64,000 nucleotides of DNA from a virus (IMGVR_UViG_3300035099_000181:1-64000); one strand, 5' to 3'. Counted from the stretch's first letter, positions 4,784 to 64,000 are shown. Made by a program: numbers and translations. The notes: generated from the letters alone by a model not told the origin.

Positions 4784-5690
4784 GAAAGAAGTTTATGAGG
4801 CCGTTGAGGAATTCACGAGCGAATGTTCGCCTTTTTCCGCTTATATTCAGGAGAAAGTCCCCGGTACGGGCTTGAAAGGCGGGCATTGGATAACAACACA
4901 TACCGGTCGCCATGTTTATATTGGAGACAGGGGGGCAAACAAGGGCCGAGTGCTAGCCGGACCTTCTGAACTTATCGGCCAGAGGGTGGGAAAGAAGACA
5001 GTTGGTGCTGCTGATATTCTCAAGGCTGAGGCCGAGCGCACTAAGCTGTCCGCAAAGGTCAAGTTTGACAGGGTTGATGAACTTGAGAAGAAGTTCAATG
5101 CTATCACTGGGGAAAATGCGAGAAACCAGAAGTCAAAGGATATAAAAATAGCTGAACATGCGGACTGTGCCTCTTTGGTGATGCATACGGCAATAAGGCC
5201 AGGCTATGATGTTGACACTCACGCTAAGGTCAAGGCCTATGGTGCTACTACATTAGAGGGAAGGCACGTTAACGTTGATTCCAAGGGCGATGTGTCCCTG
5301 AAATTCGTGGGCAAGAAGGGAGTCAATCAGGACATTCCGATAACAGATTCAAAAGTCGCTTCTATGCTGAAGGCGAAGGCCAAGCAAGCTGGGGAGACAG
5401 GGCGATTGTTCTCCAGAGTATCTGGTGAATCGCTCCTGGCCTATATCAAGAAGTTCGACGGCGGAGGATTCAAGACGAAGGACCTGCGGACTTATGTCGG
5501 GACCAATACGGCAAAGGATACGATAGCGGGAATGGCAATTCCAAAAAACGCTACGCAGTACAAGGCTGCTGTTCGACAAGTGGCTGAAGTTGTATCTAAG
5601 AAGCTAGGCAATACCCCGACGATAGCGTTGCAATCCTACATCAATCCAAAAGTCTTTATAAAATGGAGGAAGAGCGCAAATGTCGAATAA
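4776..5690 (+). CDS. DNA topoisomerase IB catalytic-core protein with an N-terminal WITxxxGRHV motif
   Basis: TopIB motifs in order: IRPG, YGATTLEGRHV, FVGKKGV, FKTKDLRTY, LGNTPTIALQSYINP (catalytic R, K, R, N, Y). Confidence 0.88.
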   Translation: MNRKEVYEAVEEFTSECSPFSAYIQEKVPGTGLKGGHWITTHTGRHVYIGDRGANKGRVLAGPSELIGQRVGKKTVGAADILKAEAERTKLSAKVKFDRVDELEKKFNAITGENARNQKSKDIKIAEHADCASLVMHTAIRPGYDVDTHAKVKAYGATTLEGRHVNVDSKGDVSLKFVGKKGVNQDIPITDSKVASMLKAKAKQAGETGRLFSRVSGESLLAYIKKFDGGGFKTKDLRTYVGTNTAKDTIAGMAIPKNATQYKAAVRQVAEVVSKKLGNTPTIALQSYINPKVFIKWRKSANVE

Positions 5691-5853
5691 GATGACATTG
5701 GATGAATGGGAAGAATACTTGAACAGCCCGCCCATAGATTGGCGGAAGTATGCAGACCTTGACCCGGACCCTGACGATGAGGAACTGGATAAGACGCCTC
5801 CTGATGTGGTAGAACTTTTGGGGTTCGACCCTAAAGAATTCTCGAAAGCGTAG
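5680..5853 (+). CDS. Small acidic protein, 57 aa (absent from the ORF track)
   Basis: MSNKMTLDEWEEYLNSPPIDWRKYADLDPDPDDEELDKTPPDVVELLGFDPKEFSKA; its ATG overlaps the end of the TopIB gene. Confidence 0.7.
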   Translation: MSNKMTLDEWEEYLNSPPIDWRKYADLDPDPDDEELDKTPPDVVELLGFDPKEFSKA

Positions 5854-15054: not shown

Positions 15055-17208
15055 TTGGATTGGGTGCTGCTTTTCTTTATAGCAACTTTGCTTATTGCTC
15101 CGGTGGTGTTCGCTCCTATGCGTTTTCTCGACGGTTACATTCTGCCTCAAATAGGGATCGCCTCGTTCGGGATCTCCTTGGCTCTTGTGTTTCTTGTTTG
15201 GCAGGGACTGTTCCCGCTTAATCTTTCCTGCATTCTCGCTCTAGGATTCTTCTCCTATCTAATGATAGCAAACTCATGGAGCACAGTTCCCCACAACTCG
15301 CTGAGGGATGTGCCCCTAATCTTCGCTTCCGTATTCTCTTTTATAATTGCCTCTTGCATAGGTTCCACTTTTGGCAATGTAGGACTCGTCGGGATAGCCC
15401 TGGCGGTGTTCTGTGTGTCGATGTTCACGTGCCTGTATGGGATAGGGCAGAGATTCCGGTTCGACCCTCTATTCCATGAGCGTCTTAAGTCAAGGAAAGA
15501 TGCCTACGCGGACAAGCCTAAAGAGAAAATCCCGGAATGCTTCCAAAATGAGAATTTCGTAGACAGCCGGGCGATATCGACGCTCGGGAACACGAACTAC
15601 GCGGCGGGGTTCTTCTTAAGCACCATACCATTCCTATTCTTCTTATCATTTGAGGTTTCTCCTTGGTTCCTGCTGTCTTTTCTTGTAGTGGTAGGGGCGA
15701 TGGTGGCTACGCACACGAGAGCAGGACTGCTGTCGATATTTACGATAGCTTTTGTCGGATTAGTCTTGGCGTCGGAGAGAGGATACTTGTTCGATATACT
15801 ATTTTGGGCATTTGGGGATATGCCCATCCTGTCAGTCATCTTGCTGAGCGTCATAATTATTGCTGGCGGGATCTTTTTGCTCAAGAAGGCTAGGAAGGGG
15901 AAGTGGCTCAGTTCATTGTCAAATCCTGATGATCCGATAAATACAACTCTTGACATAGAGCATACTCACCAGGACCATTGGGTGGCCCATTTCCGGTATC
16001 GCTTGCGTTATATCCGGGCTGCATGGTACCTCATCAAAAGGAAACCTCTACAAGGTTACGGGTTGAGGACATACAGAAAGGAAGTCTACTACGCTCAGGC
16101 GATGCTGGACATGCAAACCAAGGGCGAATTCCTTGGCTACGGGTACCAGACGCCCCAGCCGCGAGAGGTCCATAACGATCTGATAGAGAACTTTGTGGAA
16201 GGCGGCTTCCCAGGGGGCTTGCTTTTCCTCGCTGTTGTGGGGACTGTGCTTTACTCGTGTGCGGGCGCATTGAATTCTGGCATCCCGATGATGCGGTATC
16301 TTGCTATGGCCGGGATGGTCGCAGGGATAGTCGGGTTCCTGGTGGATGCCTGCTTCTTCTTCCCGCTGCGGCTTGGGCCTTCTGCTATGATGTTTTGGAC
16401 AAGCCTGGCGCTAGCTCAGTCTTATATCGCGCCTTCTTCTGTTGTGTCGTTTGGGCAGGGCTGGATGCTCCCCGCATTTGTCCTGGCCTGTCTTGCGGCA
16501 ATGAATTGGGAAGGGGTGATAAAGCCAAACTTAGGGAATTGGTACTTTACCAAGGCGAACTTCTCGCAATATTCGTATAACAAGGAGAAGTACTTAAATA
16601 AGGCCATGGATATGTGTCCGAAGGAAACGATCTTCCGGACTCATATGCTTATAGGATACATGGACTCACTGCCGAATGAGTCTGATCAGCAGGCGGAGGC
16701 CATGCGGCAGCATTATGATGGTATGACGCCGGGGTGGGCGATGGCGTACAACTCGGCAATGGCGGCGATAGCTAACCAGAGGTGGGAGGATGCGGGGAGA
16801 TTTCTTAGAGACTCACTCGTGTTCTATCCCGCATTTCAGCCAGCGAGGGATCTGATGGCCAAGATATGGGCCAAGATTCCCTTGCCAAGAGAAAGGATCA
16901 AGATGAAAAAAATGACGGATGAGGGCCTGACTGCGATAAGGGCGCATCAGCAGAGGGCGGACGGCATGCAGAAGGAGATCCAGAGAGAGCTGATCAACGT
17001 GCAGCTTTCAATCGAGAATATCATTCTCAATGAGAAACTGAGGCTGAACATCCCGATTGACTGGCCATTTGATGTACAGACAGGCGTGTTCCTATCGCCA
17101 CGAGAGGTGCAGGGTGACATGAAGGTCATCGAGATGCCTTCCGCGAGGACTCCGGTGATCCAGCCTAAGCAGATACAGCAAAACGGAGAGCAAGAGAAAG
17201 CAGCATAG
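15055..17208 (+). CDS. O-antigen ligase / O-oligosaccharyltransferase family (Wzy_C) membrane protein with a TPR-like C-terminus
   Basis: Many TM helices; STLGNTNYAAG, THTRAG, R..Y..AAWYLI...PLQGYG and VHNDLIE..VEGG motifs. Confidence 0.85.
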   Translation: MDWVLLFFIATLLIAPVVFAPMRFLDGYILPQIGIASFGISLALVFLVWQGLFPLNLSCILALGFFSYLMIANSWSTVPHNSLRDVPLIFASVFSFIIASCIGSTFGNVGLVGIALAVFCVSMFTCLYGIGQRFRFDPLFHERLKSRKDAYADKPKEKIPECFQNENFVDSRAISTLGNTNYAAGFFLSTIPFLFFLSFEVSPWFLLSFLVVVGAMVATHTRAGLLSIFTIAFVGLVLASERGYLFDILFWAFGDMPILSVILLSVIIIAGGIFLLKKARKGKWLSSLSNPDDPINTTLDIEHTHQDHWVAHFRYRLRYIRAAWYLIKRKPLQGYGLRTYRKEVYYAQAMLDMQTKGEFLGYGYQTPQPREVHNDLIENFVEGGFPGGLLFLAVVGTVLYSCAGALNSGIPMMRYLAMAGMVAGIVGFLVDACFFFPLRLGPSAMMFWTSLALAQSYIAPSSVVSFGQGWMLPAFVLACLAAMNWEGVIKPNLGNWYFTKANFSQYSYNKEKYLNKAMDMCPKETIFRTHMLIGYMDSLPNESDQQAEAMRQHYDGMTPGWAMAYNSAMAAIANQRWEDAGRFLRDSLVFYPAFQPARDLMAKIWAKIPLPRERIKMKKMTDEGLTAIRAHQQRADGMQKEIQRELINVQLSIENIILNEKLRLNIPIDWPFDVQTGVFLSPREVQGDMKVIEMPSARTPVIQPKQIQQNGEQEKAA

Positions 17209-20049: not shown

Positions 20050-22776
20050 ATGGACTATCTCAGGCAATCAACAGCCGCAACTATAACGATAGGCCAGTTC
20101 GTCAATGCTACATCTGGCAGCACTCCCCTTCTGTCTGTCGTCCTTGCTGGAACCTCTGCTGGCCTGCTCAAGAGCAACTCCCAGACATCCGTATCCTTGG
20201 GCGGAAGGAACTGGCAGCACATTGATGCCGGATTCTACCAGATGGGCCTTCTGTCTACAGATGTGGACGTCACCGGGCCTCTCTTTGTGTTCCTTTCCGG
20301 GGCTACGGCTGGGTCGAACAGCTTCCTTGGCGTCTGGAAGGAATTTCATGTCGTTAGCGCGAATTATTATGACTCAATCCATGGCGATGTCCTGCAACAA
20401 GTCAATTCCACGCAGTTTGGAGGGACCACCATAAGTAGTACAGGCGGTGTGACTGTCATTGACAAGACCGGATTCGGCATCTCATCAATATCATCGGCTG
20501 CTACACTTGCAACGGGAGTTACGGTTACAAGAAATTCTGACAAAGGGGGAACTACGGTATCCTCTCTAACAGACAAGTCAGGAATAACAGTAGGCTGGAT
20601 AGCATCTGGGGCTACTCTTACTGACAAGTCAGGAATAACAGTAGGCTGGATCTATTCAAGTGCTACACTTGCAACGGGAGTTACGGTTACAAGAAATTCT
20701 GACAAAGGGGGAACTACGGTATCCTCTCTAACAGACAAGTCAGGCATTACTGTAGGCTGGATAGCATCTGGGGCTACTCTTACTGACAAGTCAGGAATAA
20801 CAGTGGGCTGGATCTATTCAAGTGCTACACTTGCGACGGGAGTCATCGTCAGTACTCTCCAGGACAAATCAGGAATAACGGTAGGTTTGATTCCTTCGAC
20901 TGTTACTCTTCCTACTTCTGTGACTGTTGGAAGCATCGTATCTAGTGCTACACTTGCAGCAGGAGTGACAGTAGGAACGAATCAGGACAAGACTGGATAT
21001 TATCTTGCTCCTGACCAGTCCTCTGTTACCCTTGGTTGGCTGCTGTCCGGCGTCACCGTGACGAGGAACATGGACAAGTCAGGAACTACCATAAGTTCCA
21101 ATCTTGACAAGACAGATTATTATCTTGCACCGGACCAGTCTTCAGTCTCTATTGGATATGTACTCAGCGAGGTAACGAGTACAGTCGGATCTATTTCCTC
21201 TGGAGTCACGGTTTCTCGTATCGAATCTGGAGTTACTTTAGCAACAAGTGTTACAGCCTCTATAGGGACTGTTGTTGTTTCTCGTATAGATTCAGGAGCT
21301 ACACTTGCTACAGGAGTGACAGTGGGGACTAGCTTAGACAAGACTGGCTATAGCCTTGCTTCTGATCAATCCTCCGTTACTGTTGGAACTGTCGCGTCTG
21401 GCGTGACGGTCGCAAGAATAGAATCAGGGGCTACATTGGCCACAGGGGTCACTACATCAATTGCTTCTGTTACTGTGGCTCAGATAAATTCAGATGTTAC
21501 CTTGGCCACCGGCGTCACGACGGCAACTAACCTTGATAAGATCGGATATTATCTTGCTTTAGACCAATCTTCCGCAACGATTGGTTATGTCCTGAACAAT
21601 GTAACAACGACTGTAGGAACGATAACCTCTGGAGTAACTGTATCCCGTATTGAATCTTCTGTAACCCTTGCGACGAGCGTAACAGCCTCAATCGGGCAAG
21701 TAGTGGTGTCTCGGATTGATTCAGGAGCGACTTTAGCTACAGGCGTCACGGTAGGTACTAATTTGGACAAGACTGGATACTACCTTGCTTTGGATCAGTC
21801 ATCCGTCACTGTTGGATATGTGCTTAATGATGTGTCCACTACTATATCCTCTGGCGTGACGGTCACGAGGATAGATTCAGGGGCCACGCTCGCTACAGGA
21901 GTAACGGTAGGATCAAATCTTGACAAGACTGGATACTACTTGTTCCCTGACCAAAGTTCGGTCTCATTCGGATGGCTCCTATCTGGAGCCACAGTGACAA
22001 GAAACTTGGACAAGGGCGGAACTACCGTGTCTTCTGTCCTTGACAAGACAGGATACAGCCTCGCCTCAAATCAATCGGCTGTGTCCATCGGCGTTGTTGT
22101 TTCGGGCGTTACAGTAGGAAGGATTGATTCTGGCGCTACTTTAGCCACTAATGTCACAGCTTCCATAGGGACAGTCACAGTGTCAAGGATTGATTCTGGT
22201 GCTACTTTGGCGACAGGTGTGACTGTAGGAACAAATCTTGACAAGGGCGGAACTACTGTCTCTTCCGTGCTTGACAAAACTGGCTATAGTTTAAGCGCGG
22301 ATCAGTCCTCCGTTAGCGTCGGTTATGTTCTCAATAGCGTTACAAGCACTGTTGGAGCAATATCTTCAGGGGTCACGGTCTCCCGCATAGAGTCTGCTGT
22401 AACATTGGCAACTGGTGTGACAGTCGGGACCAATGCGGATAAGACTGGTTACAGCCTCGCCTATGACCAATCATCCGTAAGCGTAGGATATGTGCTAAGC
22501 GAAGTCACGGCATCAGGGGGTTTGGCGGATTGGACTCCAGCGGAAAAGGCACAGATTAGGGAAGCTCTTGGAATAACAGGAACTACAGAGGCCACTGCGG
22601 ATGGTCAACTCCAGTTTGTCTATCATATAGAAGGCGGGCGGTGGAAGATAGACACCACGACGAATGAGATGGTCTTCTACAAGGCAAACAACGTATCTGA
22701 GATAGCACGGTTTTCCTTGCTCGACAAGAATGGATTTGCCTCATACCTCAATCCATACGAGAGGACAAGGTCGTGA
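20050..22776 (+). CDS. 908-aa Ser/Thr-rich repetitive virion/fibre protein
   Basis: Repeated SGATLATGVTVGTNLDKTGYYLAxDQSSV modules. Confidence 0.75.
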   Translation: MDYLRQSTAATITIGQFVNATSGSTPLLSVVLAGTSAGLLKSNSQTSVSLGGRNWQHIDAGFYQMGLLSTDVDVTGPLFVFLSGATAGSNSFLGVWKEFHVVSANYYDSIHGDVLQQVNSTQFGGTTISSTGGVTVIDKTGFGISSISSAATLATGVTVTRNSDKGGTTVSSLTDKSGITVGWIASGATLTDKSGITVGWIYSSATLATGVTVTRNSDKGGTTVSSLTDKSGITVGWIASGATLTDKSGITVGWIYSSATLATGVIVSTLQDKSGITVGLIPSTVTLPTSVTVGSIVSSATLAAGVTVGTNQDKTGYYLAPDQSSVTLGWLLSGVTVTRNMDKSGTTISSNLDKTDYYLAPDQSSVSIGYVLSEVTSTVGSISSGVTVSRIESGVTLATSVTASIGTVVVSRIDSGATLATGVTVGTSLDKTGYSLASDQSSVTVGTVASGVTVARIESGATLATGVTTSIASVTVAQINSDVTLATGVTTATNLDKIGYYLALDQSSATIGYVLNNVTTTVGTITSGVTVSRIESSVTLATSVTASIGQVVVSRIDSGATLATGVTVGTNLDKTGYYLALDQSSVTVGYVLNDVSTTISSGVTVTRIDSGATLATGVTVGSNLDKTGYYLFPDQSSVSFGWLLSGATVTRNLDKGGTTVSSVLDKTGYSLASNQSAVSIGVVVSGVTVGRIDSGATLATNVTASIGTVTVSRIDSGATLATGVTVGTNLDKGGTTVSSVLDKTGYSLSADQSSVSVGYVLNSVTSTVGAISSGVTVSRIESAVTLATGVTVGTNADKTGYSLAYDQSSVSVGYVLSEVTASGGLADWTPAEKAQIREALGITGTTEATADGQLQFVYHIEGGRWKIDTTTNEMVFYKANNVSEIARFSLLDKNGFASYLNPYERTRS
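20500..20843. repeat. Near-exact 162-bp (54-aa) tandem duplication inside the S/T-rich gene
   Basis: GCTACACTTGCAACGGGAGTTACGGTTACAAGAAATTCTGACAAAGGG at 20500 and 20662. Confidence 0.9.
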
Positions 22777-52570: not shown

Positions 52571-55500
52571 ATGAACTTTTGTCATCTTCATGTTCATGAT
52601 CAGTATTCACAGCTTGATGGATACGGTTCAGCAGAGCAGTATGCTGATGAAGCATCTCGTTTAGAATTCACCCATCTTGCTCTGACTAATCATGGAAATG
52701 TCGATGGGCTGATTAAATTTCAGAAAGCTTGCTTAGGTAAGGATATAGTGCCTATTTTGGGAAGCGAGTTATATGTGGTGCCTGATATTTCTATTAAGGA
52801 GCCAAAGGAAAAACGCTATCATATTACTGTTCTGGTGAAGAACAATGAAGGCTTTTCTAATCTTCTGCGAATGCTCACTAAGGCCAACTTGGAAGGTTTT
52901 TATAAGCGCCCTCGTGTTAGTCCGGACATGCTTTTGAAATATTGTGGTGGCCTGATTTTTATGACCGCTTGCACATCTTCTATAGTCTATATGTCAAAGG
53001 GTAGGGAGCTGGTTAATGAGCTTGGAGATGCTACTGGGGGAAATATCTATCTTGAAATAATGCCTCACGATTATTCTGATCAAAAGAAGTTGAATAGATT
53101 GCTGCTGGTTATGTCCAAGAAGGATGGATTGCCTTTAGTGGCCACTAACGATTGTCATTATCCTTTGTCTAAGCATACAAAAGTTCAGGAAGTTCTTCTG
53201 GCTATTCAGCGTAAGGCGAAATGGATGGATAAAGATAGATGGCGATTCGAGATAGATGGTCTTTATCTTAGGACCGAGAAGGAAATGGAAGAGGCATTTC
53301 TGAGGCAGGGTATAATTCCACAGAGATTGTTTGCGGAGGCTTTGGTTAGAACTTCAGAAATAGCAAGTAAATGTGGTGGATATAAAATAGAAAAACGCTC
53401 TGTCATTCTGCCTAAAGTCTCGGGATACGAGGATAGGGATGAGACAGAACTGATGTGGGAAATAGTTAATAGAGGCCTTAAGGAGCGCCTCCTTGTTCCG
53501 GGAACAATAAGCAGGGATCAGTTGCCTGCTTATCGTTCTCGGATTAAGGAAGAGATGGATCTTATCTGCGAACTTGGCTTTCAAGGATATTTTCTAATAG
53601 TTTGGGAGCTGATAGATTGGTGCAAAAAGAATGATATTATGACTGGACCTGGCCGAGGGTCTTCCGGAGGCTCTCTTGTGGCATATCTTATGCGAATAAC
53701 TGACGTAGATCCTATAAAGTATGGTCTTGTGTTCGCAAGATTTATCTCTCCTGCCAGGATAGATTTGCCAGATATAGATATGGACTTTGAGGACATAAAG
53801 CGAGATAGGATAAGGAAACACCTTGAAGATAATTATGGTAAGTTCAATGTGTCTGGACTTTCTACCTTTGCGAAAATGAAGGGTCGCGGAGCTATACGGG
53901 ATGTAGCAAGAGTTTTTGATGTTCCTATTTTGGATACAGACAAATGCGCTAAGGCAATAGTTGTAAGATCTGGCGGAGATTTTAGATCCTCCTATACGAT
54001 AGAAGATGCCTGCAAGACCTTCGGCGATGCAATAGATTTCAATAAAAAATATCCAGAAGTTGTAAGTATAGCACAGGATTTGGAGGGGACACTAAGGGCT
54101 AGTGGGCAGCACGCAGCAGCTATTTGCATCTCTTCCGAGGATCTGAGAGAGGGCCTTTGGTGTCATCTTTGCAATAGGAAAGGAGTGGTTGTCGCTAATT
54201 GGGAAAAGTCAGATGCCGAATATATAGGGCTGATGAAATTGGATATTCTGGGTCTTACGGCTTTGACTATACTTAATTACACTAAGAAACTTCTTAAGGA
54301 GAGGCGGGGGGTCTCTATAGTGTTTGATGATATACCTCTGGATGACGAGAAGGTTCTTAGCGAGATAGCTGCTGGCAATAATGTTGGTGCTTTTCAGATC
54401 GGTTCTTCGGGTCTGATGAAACTGTGTAGGGAAATGAAGGTGAAGGAATTTAACGACATAGTCCTTGCATCAGCCTTATTCAGACCTGGGACATTGCGCT
54501 CGGGAATGGTAGAGGAATTTATACAGAGAAGGACAGGGGCAGCCCCTGTGAAGTATATTCATCCATTGCTTGAGCCTTTAACTAAAGAGACACTGGGAAT
54601 TATTCTGTATCAAGAACAGGTCATGTGGCTTATGTACGAGCTTGGTGGGTTGGGGTGGAAGACATGTGACACTGTTCGGAAGGTTATCAGTAAGTCACAA
54701 GGTGATGAATTGTTTGGAAGGTTCAAGCAGCTATTTATAGATGGCTGCCAAGAACGGAAGACTCTTTCAGAGAAAGAGGCAGATAAGGTTTGGGATCAGT
54801 TGAGCAGCTTTGGAAGTTATTCATTCAACAAGAGTCATGCTGTAGAATATTCTCTTATAACCTTTTGGATGATGTGGCTTAAGGCGCATTATCCAAAAGA
54901 GTACTTATGTGCAAGTCTGACATTTACAGGAGCAAATGATAAGGCTAGCTATATAGATGAAGCCAGAAGGCTGGGGCTATCAATAGAACTTCCGCGTGTT
55001 GGTATTTCCAAAGCAACTGAGTGGATTTCCTCTATTGCTGATGATGGGAAAATATTTGCCCCATTTTCAGAGATTAAAGGCATAGGAGAGGCTTCCGCTA
55101 GGCAACTGGAAAAAGCCAAATTGGGTTTTAAGAAGGGCTTTTTTAGAAGTAGAGAATTTCAGTTTGGTGAAGGCCGTAGGCCAAACAGCATGATTATGTC
55201 TGTTCTGGAAGAGATTGGTGCCTTGGGTAACAAGGAGCTTACTGATTCAGAACTGGAGAAAGCAAACAAATATTTTGATTTTGATCTATCAAAAGATAAG
55301 ATGGGTAAATACTCCAAATTATTTCAGAGGCTGAAAGAAAGCATGATTCTTAGCTGTGTGAAAGACATAGACTATCAAAAGCCAAGCACAGATGAGCATT
55401 ATTATTTTGGGCAAATGACCGAGGTGAAATTTGGATATAGGCAGGCAGTCTTAAAGGCACAAAAGAGCGGAATGGGCGATATTTCTGGCACAGATAATCT

Positions 55501-56329
55501 TGGCGGGGTGTATGGCAATTTCAAGGACGAAACAGATTTTACTATGCTGATTTTTGGAGGAGAGCTTTATCAAAGAAAAAAGGCAGATGTAGAGCATTGT
55601 GCTGGTGATTGGATTTTAGCTAAAGCTAATCATCCTAAACGGAAGACTGCAATATTGGCTAACGATGCTTGGATAGGAAAAGAACTTTTATCCTGTGATT
55701 TGGAAGGTTGTAACATTGAACTTATTTCTAATAGTCATCCTTGTGTCTTACCAAATATAGATAAATGTTCATTGTGCTCTTTAAGATCAGAATGCAAAAG
55801 ACCTGTTCCAGCCTCTCCCGGTAAATATAATGTCATGCTGATAGGCGAAGCGCCAGGAAAAGAGGAGGATCTTAAAGGGATAGGATTTATAGGCAAGGCA
55901 GGGAGCGAAGTGCTGTGGCCTGAGCTGGCTAAGTACCGTCTTGATAGAGAGATGTTTCATATCACCAATATTGTAAAGTGCTGGCCAAGTAATACAAAAA
56001 CTCCTTCTAAAAAGCACATATTTGAGTGCTCTTCTATTATCAAGGAAGAGATATCCTCCGTTAGGCCAGTTCTCGCCTTGGCCTTCGGGAATACTAATGT
56101 TAAGTTCTTCAAAGGTTTGGATAGTGGGATTATTGGCCTTAACGCCACGACGGAATGGTCTAATGAATATGGAATGTGGATATGCTGGTGCATTCATCCG
56201 GCTGCCGTTCTTTATCAGCAGCCTAACTTAGATCTGTTTTCTGCTGGAATAGAGAATTTTGTTAAGAAGCTGAGTTATATTGCTGGAGATAAGTTGTCCT
56301 TTCCTTTTACAAGAAAGAGAGAAGAATGA
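52571..56329 (+). CDS. dnaE: DNA polymerase III alpha subunit fused to a C-terminal family-4 uracil-DNA glycosylase-like domain
   Basis: PHP HLHVHDQYSQLDG, GPGRGS, PDIDMDF, KLDILGL, YSFNKSHA; C-terminal CSLC..C, IGEAPG..ED, NIVKCWP, HPAAVL. Confidence 0.93.
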   Translation: MNFCHLHVHDQYSQLDGYGSAEQYADEASRLEFTHLALTNHGNVDGLIKFQKACLGKDIVPILGSELYVVPDISIKEPKEKRYHITVLVKNNEGFSNLLRMLTKANLEGFYKRPRVSPDMLLKYCGGLIFMTACTSSIVYMSKGRELVNELGDATGGNIYLEIMPHDYSDQKKLNRLLLVMSKKDGLPLVATNDCHYPLSKHTKVQEVLLAIQRKAKWMDKDRWRFEIDGLYLRTEKEMEEAFLRQGIIPQRLFAEALVRTSEIASKCGGYKIEKRSVILPKVSGYEDRDETELMWEIVNRGLKERLLVPGTISRDQLPAYRSRIKEEMDLICELGFQGYFLIVWELIDWCKKNDIMTGPGRGSSGGSLVAYLMRITDVDPIKYGLVFARFISPARIDLPDIDMDFEDIKRDRIRKHLEDNYGKFNVSGLSTFAKMKGRGAIRDVARVFDVPILDTDKCAKAIVVRSGGDFRSSYTIEDACKTFGDAIDFNKKYPEVVSIAQDLEGTLRASGQHAAAICISSEDLREGLWCHLCNRKGVVVANWEKSDAEYIGLMKLDILGLTALTILNYTKKLLKERRGVSIVFDDIPLDDEKVLSEIAAGNNVGAFQIGSSGLMKLCREMKVKEFNDIVLASALFRPGTLRSGMVEEFIQRRTGAAPVKYIHPLLEPLTKETLGIILYQEQVMWLMYELGGLGWKTCDTVRKVISKSQGDELFGRFKQLFIDGCQERKTLSEKEADKVWDQLSSFGSYSFNKSHAVEYSLITFWMMWLKAHYPKEYLCASLTFTGANDKASYIDEARRLGLSIELPRVGISKATEWISSIADDGKIFAPFSEIKGIGEASARQLEKAKLGFKKGFFRSREFQFGEGRRPNSMIMSVLEEIGALGNKELTDSELEKANKYFDFDLSKDKMGKYSKLFQRLKESMILSCVKDIDYQKPSTDEHYYFGQMTEVKFGYRQAVLKAQKSGMGDISGTDNLGGVYGNFKDETDFTMLIFGGELYQRKKADVEHCAGDWILAKANHPKRKTAILANDAWIGKELLSCDLEGCNIELISNSHPCVLPNIDKCSLCSLRSECKRPVPASPGKYNVMLIGEAPGKEEDLKGIGFIGKAGSEVLWPELAKYRLDREMFHITNIVKCWPSNTKTPSKKHIFECSSIIKEEISSVRPVLALAFGNTNVKFFKGLDSGIIGLNATTEWSNEYGMWICWCIHPAAVLYQQPNLDLFSAGIENFVKKLSYIAGDKLSFPFTRKREE

Positions 56330-61486: not shown

Positions 61487-62035
61487 ATGTCAAGAAAGAA
61501 GATGCACGAGGAGCCGAAAAGGGTTTACGCATGGAGGGACGGTAGTGGGAAGCGGTTTGGGAAGTTTGATGCCCAACCTGCGGGCGAGGAAGTGGAGAAG
61601 CTTCAGAAGTTACATGGGCATGAACTTGAGCCTGCGGACGTTGTGGAGGCGGCAGCAGATGAGAAGAATGTTCTGCATGACTTATTCGAGTGGGACAATC
61701 TGAAGGCCGGACACGAATGGAGGCTGCAGCAGGCGCGTTTCCTTTTGCAGTCCCTCAAGGTGACGATCACTCATTATGATGGGAAGACGATCACGTTGGA
61801 TCGGGCGACGGCGGTGCTTCCCGCCAAGAATGGTTCAGGCGGGAAAAAATATGTCATGATGGAACGGGCGATGCGGGATGCGGACAGCAGGAACTATCTG
61901 CTCCGGGTGGCGTTGCTTGAGGCCATCGCGTTCAGGAACAAGTACAAGGAGCTGTCGGAACTGACGAAGATCTTTGTCGAGATTGACCTGGCATACAAGG
62001 AGCATGCCGGGGAACTGAAGCAGTGCGTCATGTGA
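61487..62035 (+). CDS. Conserved-type phage protein linked to the AGC-NN arrays (candidate accessory factor)
   Basis: GGAGG RBS; DAQPAGEE..VVEAA..LHDLFEWD..AG..WRLQQAR; stop codon lies a few nt before array 1. Confidence 0.7.
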   Translation: MSRKKMHEEPKRVYAWRDGSGKRFGKFDAQPAGEEVEKLQKLHGHELEPADVVEAAADEKNVLHDLFEWDNLKAGHEWRLQQARFLLQSLKVTITHYDGKTITLDRATAVLPAKNGSGGKKYVMMERAMRDADSRNYLLRVALLEAIAFRNKYKELSELTKIFVEIDLAYKEHAGELKQCVM

Positions 62036-62039
62036 TTCT

Positions 62040-62707
62040 GGCATGGCAGAGCGGAGTAGGGATAGGTTGAGTAAAGCAAAGCAAGGCAGGCGGAGCGAAG
62101 CAGAGCATAGCAAAGCCAAACAAAGCAAGGCAGGCGAAGCGGAGCACAGCGGAGCAAAGCAGAGCCGAGCAAAGCAAAGCAAGGCAGGCTAAGCGAAGCA
62201 GAGCCCAGCACAGCCCAGCAAAGCCCAGCAGAGCCTAGCAAAGCAAGGCAGGCGGAGCATAGCCTAGCTTAGCCGAGCAGAGCCAAGCACAGCTAAATAA
62301 AGCAATGCAGGCAGAGCTTAGCTTAGCGTAGCCCAGCCAAGCACAGCCAAGCAAAGCAAGGCAGGCTAAGCTTAGCATAGCTTAGCAAAGCTAAGCAAAG
62401 CAAGGCAGGCCAAGCGGAGCCGAGCACAGCATAGCTTAGCAAAGCCAAGCAAAGCAAGGCAGGCCAAGCGGAGCCGAGCACAGCAGAGCTGAGCTGAGCC
62501 AAGCAAAGCAAGGCAGGCAAAGCATAGCGCAGCGCAGCTTAGCAGAGCGTAGCGAAACAAAGCAAAGCAGGCCAAGCGTAGCATAGCAAAGCAAAGCGTA
62601 GCTGAGCCAAGCTGAGCGAAGCAAAGCAAGGCAGGCTAAGCAAAGCGTAGCTCAGCCAAGCGTAGCCTAGCAAAGCTCAGCTAAGCAAAGCAAGCAAAGC
62701 AAGGCAG
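62040..62707 (+). repeat. Array 1: 12 units of (NN-AGC)n closed by AAAGCAAGGCAGGC; candidate guide-RNA array
   Basis: Strict 5-nt period with constant AGC and variable dinucleotide; delimiter recurs about every 45-65 bp. Confidence 0.9.
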
Positions 62708-62708
62708 A

Positions 62709-62736
62709 AGGCGATTGGCAGTCGCCTATCGCCAAT
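62709..62736 (+). other. Hairpin(s) closing array 1
   Basis: AGGCGA/TCGCCT, with alternative pairings GGCGAT/ATCGCC and ATTGGC/GCCAAT. Confidence 0.5.
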
Positions 62737-62773
62737 GGGTTTCATTTAACAGGAATCAAGAAGGAGAAATGTC

Positions 62774-63493
62774 ATGGCAAGGAAGGCAGTGTCAGAAGCT
62801 AACGTGGCAATTACTATTAGTTCCCCCAAGTTTGACATCTTCAAATGTTCGATAATTGGGAGTTCTCCATTCGTGTCGAATAAGTTTTCCGAGAAGGCAC
62901 GGATTATGATGGAGGAGGCCCAGATGCAGGGGCAGGCAGCCAAGACGACGAGGAAGAGGGAACCGAAGGATTTCGAGTCTCTTTACCTCGGGTCTATGCA
63001 TCTTGCGGATTCCGGTGATTGGTATGGCATTCCGTGCTCGGCCTTTAGGAGCGCCATGATCAAGGCATGTAGCATTGTTGGTGTGCATATGACAAAGGCT
63101 AAGATGTGCGTCTTTGTTGAGCCTGATGGGTTTAGCAGGGAAGGAACGGCGTTGGTCAGGATAACGAAGGGGGAACCTAAGATGTTCAAGGCGGCGGTAA
63201 TATTGGCGTCTGGAGTTCCCGATATTTCCGCGCGTGGAATGTGGATGCCTGGATGGGAAGCGGAGCTGCGGATACGGTACGACTCGGATATCTTCTCTCC
63301 GGAGACCGTGGCTAACCTTCTGATGAGGGCTGGATTGCAGGTGGGAGTTGGTGCCGGTCGCCATGCTTCCGAAAGGTCGTCCGGGCAAGGGTGGGGGGAG
63401 TTCATGTTGAAGACGGATTCTCAGGATATGGGCAGGGAAGAGGGACTTGAGGCAAACCCTGTTCCAAAAAGGAGATTGAGACAGGCAGCATAG
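62774..63493 (+). CDS. RAMP/Cas7-like RNA-binding protein
   Basis: IIGSSPF first strand, YGIPCSAFRSAM (compare Csm3/Cmr4 PxIPGSSxKG), C-terminal Gly-rich loop AGLQVGVGAGR...GQGWGEF. Confidence 0.7.
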   Translation: MARKAVSEANVAITISSPKFDIFKCSIIGSSPFVSNKFSEKARIMMEEAQMQGQAAKTTRKREPKDFESLYLGSMHLADSGDWYGIPCSAFRSAMIKACSIVGVHMTKAKMCVFVEPDGFSREGTALVRITKGEPKMFKAAVILASGVPDISARGMWMPGWEAELRIRYDSDIFSPETVANLLMRAGLQVGVGAGRHASERSSGQGWGEFMLKTDSQDMGREEGLEANPVPKRRLRQAA

Positions 63494-63523
63494 GGACGCG
63501 GCGATGGCATATTCGTTTTGATT

Positions 63524-64000
63524 AAGGCAGGGTTGGCTGAGCACAGTCCGGCTCAGCTAATCCGAACAAAGCAAAGCAGGCCAAGCCCAGCATAGCCCAG
63601 CAAAGCTAAGCCGAGCTAAGCTGAGCCCAGCAAAGCAAGGCAGGCGAAGCAGAGCATAGCATAGCCAAGCAAAGCAAAGCAAAGCCCAGCTAAACAAAGC
63701 AAGGCAGGCGAAGCATAGCGTAGCAAAGCAAAGCAAAGCCCAGCTAAACAAAGCAAGGCAGGCGAAGCGTAGCTCAGCAAAGCATAGTGCAGCACAGCGG
63801 AGCCAAGCATAGTAAAGCAAAGCAAGGCAGGCTAAGCTAAGCATAGCACAGCAGAGCGTAGCAAGGAAAAGCAAGGCAGGCGTAGCTGAGCCCAGCGGAG
63901 CATAGCGGAGCAAAGCGGAGCAGAGCAAGGCAGGCGGAGCAGAGCGGAGCAAAGCGCAGCAGAGCAAAGCCCAGCATAGCGGAGCAGAGCTAAACAAAGC
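63524..64000 (+). repeat. Array 2: at least 8 units of (NN-AGC)n with the same delimiter, truncated by the window end
   Basis: Same grammar as array 1 with different dinucleotide strings. Confidence 0.9.

Follow-up and report, generated by a model that had tools for sequence, protein, structure and literature searches.

Which function is served by the pentanucleotide arrays that flank a small gene near the end of a 64,000-nt stretch of viral DNA (IMGVR_UViG_3300035099_000181:1-64000)? This stretch, referred to below as the window, comprises the first 64 kb of a phage contig of 101,070 bp. The arrays, in which each pentamer consists of a fixed AGC triplet and two variable bases (NN), occupy 62040-62707 and 63530-64076 on the plus strand, the last 76 bases lying beyond the window end. 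The region 61487-64076 is very probably a phage locus for Viral Interference Programmable Repeats (VIPR) that encodes a Vipr protein, a Vap-like partner, and arrays of guide RNAs (vrRNAs), and that belongs to the staggered-array family, here with AGC scaffolds. This identification is based on the RAMP fold of the predicted Vipr, the conserved synteny, the agreement with the published layout, a unit register with 1-nt overlap, the lack of a self-target, duplications among the guides, and their fast turnover. The kind of locus is already known and is a member of the very recently described VIPR systems; the new detail is that AGC-type arrays accompany the loss of E194, N144, and R152 in Vipr.

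VIPR, first described in 2026, is an RNA-guided DNA silencer composed of a small RAMP (Vipr) and an accessory gene (vap), and is mostly phage-borne (bioRxiv 10.64898/2026.04.26.720920). Vipr is a stand-alone RAMP with an RRM core, a glycine-rich loop, and a thumb, and the published proteins include UniProt X1U2U4 with its PSI-BLAST family. Intergenic arrays flank vipr, and each vrRNA consists of 9-16 pentamers with a conserved GGY triplet and a hypervariable NN; the alternative repeats NNNGG, YNNNG, and NNNNG and 'a related consensus' are allowed, and in 'staggered arrays' adjacent vrRNAs overlap by 1 nt (10.64898/2026.04.26.720920). In experiments on GGY-type systems one target base, usually the wobble base, was skipped per dinucleotide, and no self-targets were found for the published systems (10.64898/2026.04.26.720920). 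The diversity of VIPR has been under mapping since that description. The present locus adds a sizeable set of natural guides, 20 of them distinct and all arranged in staggered arrays, on a scaffold triplet that is reportedly unusable by the model VIPR system, and its scaffold switch comes with a testable residue signature (E194, N144, R152); orthogonal Vipr-guide pairs for engineering are a possible yield.

Organization of the locus and register of the arrays

The locus is composed of the vap-like gene, array 1, vipr, and array 2, in this order and all on the plus strand (61487-64076). Its features are as follows.

61487-62035, plus strand: vap-like partner gene, 182 aa; the open reading frame (ORF) before array 1, with homologues at related loci.
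62040-62089, plus strand: leader or degenerate first unit of array 1, with scaffolds ggc ggc agc agt gga ggt agt agc agc ggc.
62089-62707, plus strand: array 1 units 2-12 (11 units, 9-13 pentamers each) of the form GGC-NN (AGC-NN)n AGC-AA GGC-AG, with one G common to neighbours at GGCAG/GC.
62089, 62133, 62187, 62251, 62310, 62364, 62408, 62462, 62516, 62570, and 62634, plus strand: array 1 unit boundaries, located in the sequence as GCAGGC.
62710-62733, plus strand: hairpin 3' of array 1, with the ribosome-binding site AAGGAG after it and the start codon of vipr 40 nt downstream.
62774-63493, plus strand: vipr gene, encoding a 239-aa Cas7-like RAMP; an ORF between both arrays, assigned by fold match.
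63530-63579, plus strand: leader or degenerate first unit of array 2, with scaffolds ggg ggc agc agt ggc agc atc aac agc agc.
63579-64000, plus strand: array 2 units 2-8, with 10-15 pentamers per unit; the ends of unit 8 (64007) and unit 9 (64076) both lie beyond the window.

Splitting the arrays at GGCAGGC produced raw units of 44, 49, 54, 64, or 69 nt, all of length 5k+4. When one shared G was assigned to both neighbours at GGCAG/GC, every unit (21/21) became an exact multiple of 5 nt, in register, with 9-15 pentamers. Under this 1-nt overlap array 1 contains 12 units and array 2 contains 9, and 20 of the 21 are distinct. The general unit form is GGC-NN (AGC-NN)n AGC-AA (A/G)GC-AG, so that the units close with three almost invariant dinucleotides (AA AA AG); all 16 dinucleotides are present at the remaining NN positions, which are A-rich, with AA the commonest (27/181). 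GGC is the first scaffold in nearly every unit and the last in most, and 181 of the 206 in-run scaffolds begin with A. The tail of array 1 unit 12 has a 1-nt deletion. The hairpin after array 1 had z = -2.4 (86-nt stretch) and received no terminator call in a terminator scan; a 13-bp hairpin in the first unit of array 2 (63530-63563) had z = -3.2. No 5-nt periodicity was found in the rest of the contig, searches of the whole window with Rfam (gathering thresholds) and a tRNA scan returned no matches, and the 14-nt junction motif gave only single chance matches in viral contigs.

This layout resembles published VIPR in having a small stand-alone RAMP, an accessory partner gene, carriage by a phage, 3+2 pentamers (9-15 per unit here, 9-16 per vrRNA as published) in arrays that flank vipr, a 1-nt overlap of adjacent units at the sequence level, and no self-targets. 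The sequence-only reading had taken the NN strings to be the information-bearing part of the guides, which agrees with the RAMP-fold Vipr homologue and the published VIPR layout. The locus differs from published VIPR in that the units have no separate structured 3' tail and end instead in constant AGC-AA (A/G)GC-AG, and in that two arrays hold 21 units, compared with four vrRNAs in phage SUSP1. At another viral locus (L267, 4600-4840) the units of a GGC-type array are split by a conserved structured element of ~60 nt, which may be the ribozyme-interspersed layout of the preprint.

The backbone of Class 1 CRISPR-Cas effectors (Cas7, Csm3, Cmr4) is also similar, sharing the RAMP fold by Foldseek, known here from sequence and a model, and a filament on guide RNA with periodic bases withheld from pairing, the filament being presumed for this locus. 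The period is 5 nt with 2 read bases here, whereas in Class 1 systems it is 6 nt with 5 read bases. Direct repeats of ~25-40 nt alternating with spacers, as in CRISPR-Cas, were not found, no cas1/cas2 or other cas families were detected among the neighbour genes scanned, and nothing pointed to templated acquisition of spacers.

Predicted Vipr and Vap-like proteins

The 239-aa protein had 503 homologues in a large protein collection, every one 'hypothetical' or nameless, and no named Vipr was among the 120 homologues listed for it. Pfam contained no family for either the 239-aa or the 182-aa protein, and each matched a PHROG of unknown function (PHROG 15946 for the 182-aa protein). An AF2 model of the 239-aa protein, based on an alignment of 42 homologues (pLDDT 88.6), was compared with the PDB using Foldseek. 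The top matches were Cmr4 (6s6b_I; E 2e-6, probability 1.00), type VII Cas7 (8z4j_J), and Csm3 (6ifl_F), with 112 PDB chains at E<=1e-3 and Cas7-11 among the matched RAMPs. Glycine-rich motifs, GVGAGR (190-196) and SxGxGWGxF (202-210), are located near the C-terminus. Homologues with 29-42% identity, annotated as hypothetical, are carried by cyanophage Cy-LDV1 and by Gordonia phages ODay, Ecliptus, and UmaThurman (records BK059895.1, MW534375.1, OP820472.1, and NC_031249.1).

Relatives of the 239-aa protein were encoded by 521 of 600 candidate stretches of viral contigs, and the best 80 loci were used. At least one 5-nt-periodic stretch was present at 67 of these 80 loci, and a stricter array census was passed by 64 of 81 (L143 having been added to the 80). 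In the displayed related loci the arrays adjoin the gene for the 239-aa homologue and are on the same strand, and relatives with the same kind of array occur in many phyla and in unrelated gene neighbourhoods.

Homologues of the 182-aa protein were identified by tblastn at 53 viral loci, where they usually follow the vipr homologue immediately and share its strand, and also at 41 of 51 prokaryote-genome loci (E<=1e-4). The AF2 model of this protein had a pLDDT of 92.4, and the Foldseek search of the PDB with it gave no match at E<=1e-3. As modeled, the protein is probably a winged-helix-like DNA binder with a C-terminal helical hairpin.

Duplication, editing, and turnover of guides

It had been proposed from the sequence that adjacent units share partial strings and that new guides arise by unit duplication plus recombination. 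Both pairs of strings cited for this were present: units 8 and 9 of array 1 (62408-62516) read CA GG CG AC AT TT AA CA and CA GG CG AC AG TG TG CA, and units 3 and 4 of array 2 (63643-63761) both close with AA AA AA CC TA ahead of the constant tail. In addition, unit 9 of array 2 (64007-64076, beyond the window) repeats the 70 nt of unit 5 without a difference. A shared run of at least four consecutive NN was found in three unit pairs (runs of 11, 5, and 4); when the variable NN were shuffled among units 1000 times, the mean was 0.19 pairs and three pairs were reached in 2 of 1000 shuffles. Rare scaffold variants also recur between units, namely aac before the tail and agt twice in units 5 and 9, and this recurrence marks common descent.

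Arrays were then compared among related phages. Seven related viral loci with 88-94% identical DNA have GGC-type arrays, and the GGCAGGC junction is common to these and to the AGC-type arrays. In these relatives the degenerate first unit is a conserved leader, all following units differ in NN content and number, and no whole guide is shared between phages whose flanks are 88-94% identical. Thus the units are not invariant: the leader has been kept and every guide replaced. Chimeric and edited units were recognized in the relatives. At L302 one unit reappears in the second array, lengthened by two pentamers, L302 and L311 have the 5' half and the 3' end of a unit in common, and L295 and L311 share a prefix of four dinucleotides. 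The identical units, the excess of shared runs (3 vs 0.19 pairs), and the relatives' chimeric units uphold the proposal, and duplication, pentamer gain or loss, and in-register recombination are supported as sources of new guides, not proven as the sole source. It is plausible that the guides did not come from spacer acquisition.

The same sequence-only reading held that each array begins with a degenerate unit and is polar on that account. Mixed scaffolds, a leader in first position, and arrays on the gene strand were all confirmed. The first unit is more than a guide that has decayed, because that of array 2 is a 13-bp hairpin and that of the relatives is a conserved leader. The comparison of relatives bears on the question of how guides arise in a system without an adaptation module, pointing to duplication, pentamer gain or loss, in-register recombination, and very fast turnover; a text search of the VIPR papers, covering the portions of their text that were available, found no discussion of the origin of new guides in such a system.

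Scaffold triplets and candidate Vipr residues

The scaffolds used within the Vipr family are mostly GGC, with AGC, mixed RGY, GGT, GGA, and GTC also represented, and in the Vipr protein tree the arrays that contain AGC are spread over three separate clades. Residue E194, in the motif G-[VI]-G-E-G-R, is kept in 100 of 116 Vipr sequences and lost in 16. Among the sequences that keep it (79 arrays with at least 10 pentamers), the mean frequency of A at scaffold position 1 was 4%, the sole outlier being L259 with a GTC-type array. The six sequences that lack E194, N144, and R152 together had 75-95% A at this position, and those that lack E194 only had 0-49% A (eight with arrays). In the solved VIPR structure, as given in the available part of the report, one protomer covers each repeat, and recognition of G1 depends on a histidine and on an aspartate of the G-loop (10.64898/2026.04.26.720927). 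By analogy with that aspartate, E194, N144, and R152 are candidate scaffold-code residues.

Other fixed triplets beside a Vipr-like fold have been reported: the accessible text of a genomic language model survey names the non-canonical VIPR units GAC/NN, CAC/NN, WGT/NN, and TGH/NN (bioRxiv 10.64898/2026.10.21.760802). The present locus is alike in having a non-GGY fixed triplet next to such a fold; it differs in that AGC/NN is not among the examples named in that text, and in that the AGC variant occurs within a family that mostly uses GGC, so that the switch can be tied to particular residues. The letters AGC were absent from the main text of the papers that mention VIPR, a check that extended to all of them except the competition paper cited below.

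As a tentative suggestion, one that we regard as possible at best, the lineage may have lost E194 (in the GxGEGR loop), N144, and R152 and thereby re-coded its scaffold from GGC to AGC, which would give a Vipr-vrRNA pair orthogonal to the GGC type, while the pentamer scaffold would act as a recombination substrate that shuffles NN into new guides without acquisition machinery. If so, the recoded silencer would be deaf to the decoy or hijacking vrRNAs of rivals, and its own guides would be useless to rival Viprs.

Other members of this Vipr family (L259, L265, L269, and L314/L315) use the fixed triplets GTC, GGT, and GGA, so that a single protein family shows further variation in its scaffold code. 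More NN-AGC arrays of high entropy were seen in viral contigs at L147, L193, L176, L239, L227, and L229, and terminator-like hairpins come after some of them. A Vipr-profile search of the L147, L176, L239, and L227 contigs gave no match, from which nothing firm follows as these contigs are fragments; possible identities are orphan vrRNA arrays and arrays of other Vipr types.

Proposed mechanism

Transcription, processing, DNA targeting, and the skip rule at this locus are inferred by us from the published systems. The arrays would be transcribed and cut at the GGCAG/GC junctions, releasing 21 vrRNAs, 20 of them distinct and each 45-75 nt long, and Vipr would polymerise on each vrRNA with one protomer per pentamer. 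The fixed AGC triplet would be buried by Vipr and the two variable bases exposed, so that the NN string could pair with double-stranded DNA of a competing phage or satellite, one target base being skipped per dinucleotide, and transcription would be repressed at the paired site. Reading with a skipped base at the wobble position, which the sequence-only account had suggested, is the published VIPR mechanism. The constant last three pentamers (AA, AA, AG) are probably a handle or processing signal and not part of the guide. New guides appear to arise within the array by duplication of whole units or unit blocks, by gain or loss of single pentamers and base changes in NN, and by in-register recombination that fuses the 5' portion of a unit with the 3' portion of a different one.

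Target searches and points against the identification

All guides were compared with several sequence sets. Self-targets in the phage's own genome were sought with skips of 0-3, and the best matches equalled shuffled controls; no outliers were obtained against 546 kb of related VIPR loci; and against the whole contigs G001 and G003 only the L321 and L366 matches described below stood out. Larger collections were scanned with exact gapped patterns only, allowing no mismatches, for 6 of the 20 distinct guides.

Several results weigh against the identification as VIPR. The fixed triplet is AGC in place of GGY (C-NN-A-G in the published YNNGG frame), and GGY>AGY is among the GGY changes reported to abolish silencing in the model system (10.64898/2026.04.26.720920). 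The best VIA-align matches of the 182-aa model, which are weak, were to winged-helix regulators (MexR, MecI, Fur; Z 6.7, residues ~25-127). The six-guide exact scans gave 0, 0, 1, 1, 40, 3, and 1 matches, which is the chance level for 16-20 specified bases, and they yielded no natural target. The examined matches skip codon position 1 or 2 and not the wobble base. Guide A2-5/9 had 0 matches in viral contigs and 0 in prokaryote genomes; guide A1-4 had 1 match in metagenomes, in a eukaryote-like ORF of Sec63/Brr2 type (read from translation) with the skip at codon position 1; the A2-8 core had 1 match, the one in L321 described below; guide A1-8 had 3; and the A2-2 core had 1, antisense in a GHKL-ATPase-like ORF (read from translation) with the skip at position 2. 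The 40 matches of guide A1-9 fell into ~19 sequence families, none in a ligase, and their phase favoured codon positions 3+1; chance matches are expected to show such a bias, because the second base of many dinucleotides is G. A match at L367 lies between overlapping ORFs, with the skip at position 3 on one strand and an ambiguous phase.

The published 'related consensus' and the YNNNG repeat imply that the AGC triplet lowers only the membership of the canonical type and not that of VIPR, and the loss of silencing on GGY>AGY in the model system implies that Vipr here must read its scaffold differently. The accessible text on VIPR in phage-satellite competition describes a footprint of 18 bp, wobble alignment of about 90%, and vrRNAs that are orphans (10.64898/2026.10.15.759431). 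When the guides here were assigned by a composition classifier, 8 of 21 went to codon positions 1-2, where 33% is expected at random and 59% if all were wobble-aligned. The suggestion that one unit, read as codons, resembles a P-loop was without support beyond three guides that share GG-NN-GG-AA and may be related by descent.

Matches in two other viral contigs were recorded separately. In L321 (G001), a 32-kb contig of 40.6% G+C, guides A1-8 (15/16) and A2-8 (22/24) match one gene at 5434-5456 and 5694-5728, 240 bp apart; the gene encodes an ATP-dependent DNA ligase, as read from its KxDG motif. At the sole mismatch of A1-8 the target base is that of its sister guide A1-9. The probability of a second match anywhere in the contig was ~0.015, assuming uniform base composition, neither site is wobble-aligned, and no other guide matches the contig. 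This coincidence of two matches is kept as a lead. In L366 (G003), a complete 56.7-kb phage of 61% G+C, guide A1-8 matches 16/16 at 16044-16066, a site that spans the start codon of a capsid-like ORF, with a GAGG ribosome site ahead of it; the best skip-1 matches of A1-12 and A1-11 are located <400 bp from this site and were not above shuffles.

Alternative explanations

The arrays could encode RNAs of VIPR type that are not weapons against competitors and instead act as decoys, regulate genes of the host or of the phage itself, or serve as Vipr sponges in the manner of the satellite orphan vrRNAs. The scans of viral, metagenome, and genome collections found no target for six guides, the variable NN are A-rich, and satellite-borne orphan or decoy vrRNAs do exist according to the available part of the competition paper (10.64898/2026.10.15.759431). 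This explanation is nevertheless unlikely, given that the locus has its own vipr and vap-like genes, no self-target was found, and the diversity of the guides and their fast turnover between relatives suit an arms race; the exact-match scans are, moreover, too blunt to exclude real targets.

The position of the arrays allows a reading at the DNA level, as iterons, an origin, or Chi-like signals, because a RecA-like (RecA/UvsX-like) gene directly precedes the locus and genes for DNA polymerase III alpha, the clamp, and the clamp loader are nearby. AGCGG is the Bacillus Chi motif. Such elements are nonetheless very improbable here: relatives of the 239-aa protein carry these arrays in unrelated neighbourhoods and many phyla, what varies is the dinucleotide and not a fixed site for protein binding, a transcript agrees with the strand asymmetry and with the polarity from leader to tail, and the RAMP fold is RNA-binding. 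The chance is smaller still, and close to nil, that the arrays are a minus-strand repetitive protein (GCT-NNG-CTN-NGC-TNN, giving A-x-L-x-x, pentapeptide-like) or slippage satellite DNA. A 146-aa minus-strand ORF does run across array 2 (63557-63997), but over array 1 the minus strand is interrupted, with ORFs of 44-115 aa, the repeat period is 5 nt and not 15, and by our own arithmetic long minus-strand ORFs arise by chance because only 1 in 5 codons can be a stop; slippage, for its part, would not keep three fixed and two hypervariable bases, nor a higher-order unit with conserved junctions. A TRAP-like protein-binding array, an R-loop origin, and pentapeptide coding had also been candidates and were dropped on the RAMP fold and the synteny.

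Neighbouring gene and other repeats in the window

The DNA polymerase III alpha gene in the window (52571-56329) encodes a DnaE-type protein with PHP, NTPase, and finger domains, and its product carries a C-terminal domain of the uracil-DNA-glycosylase superfamily at residues 1085-1218. Tandem repeats of other kinds were observed at the contig start (1-141; 44 nt, 3.2 copies, 95% matches) and within a large ORF (20499-20843; 162 nt, 2.1 copies, 97% matches).

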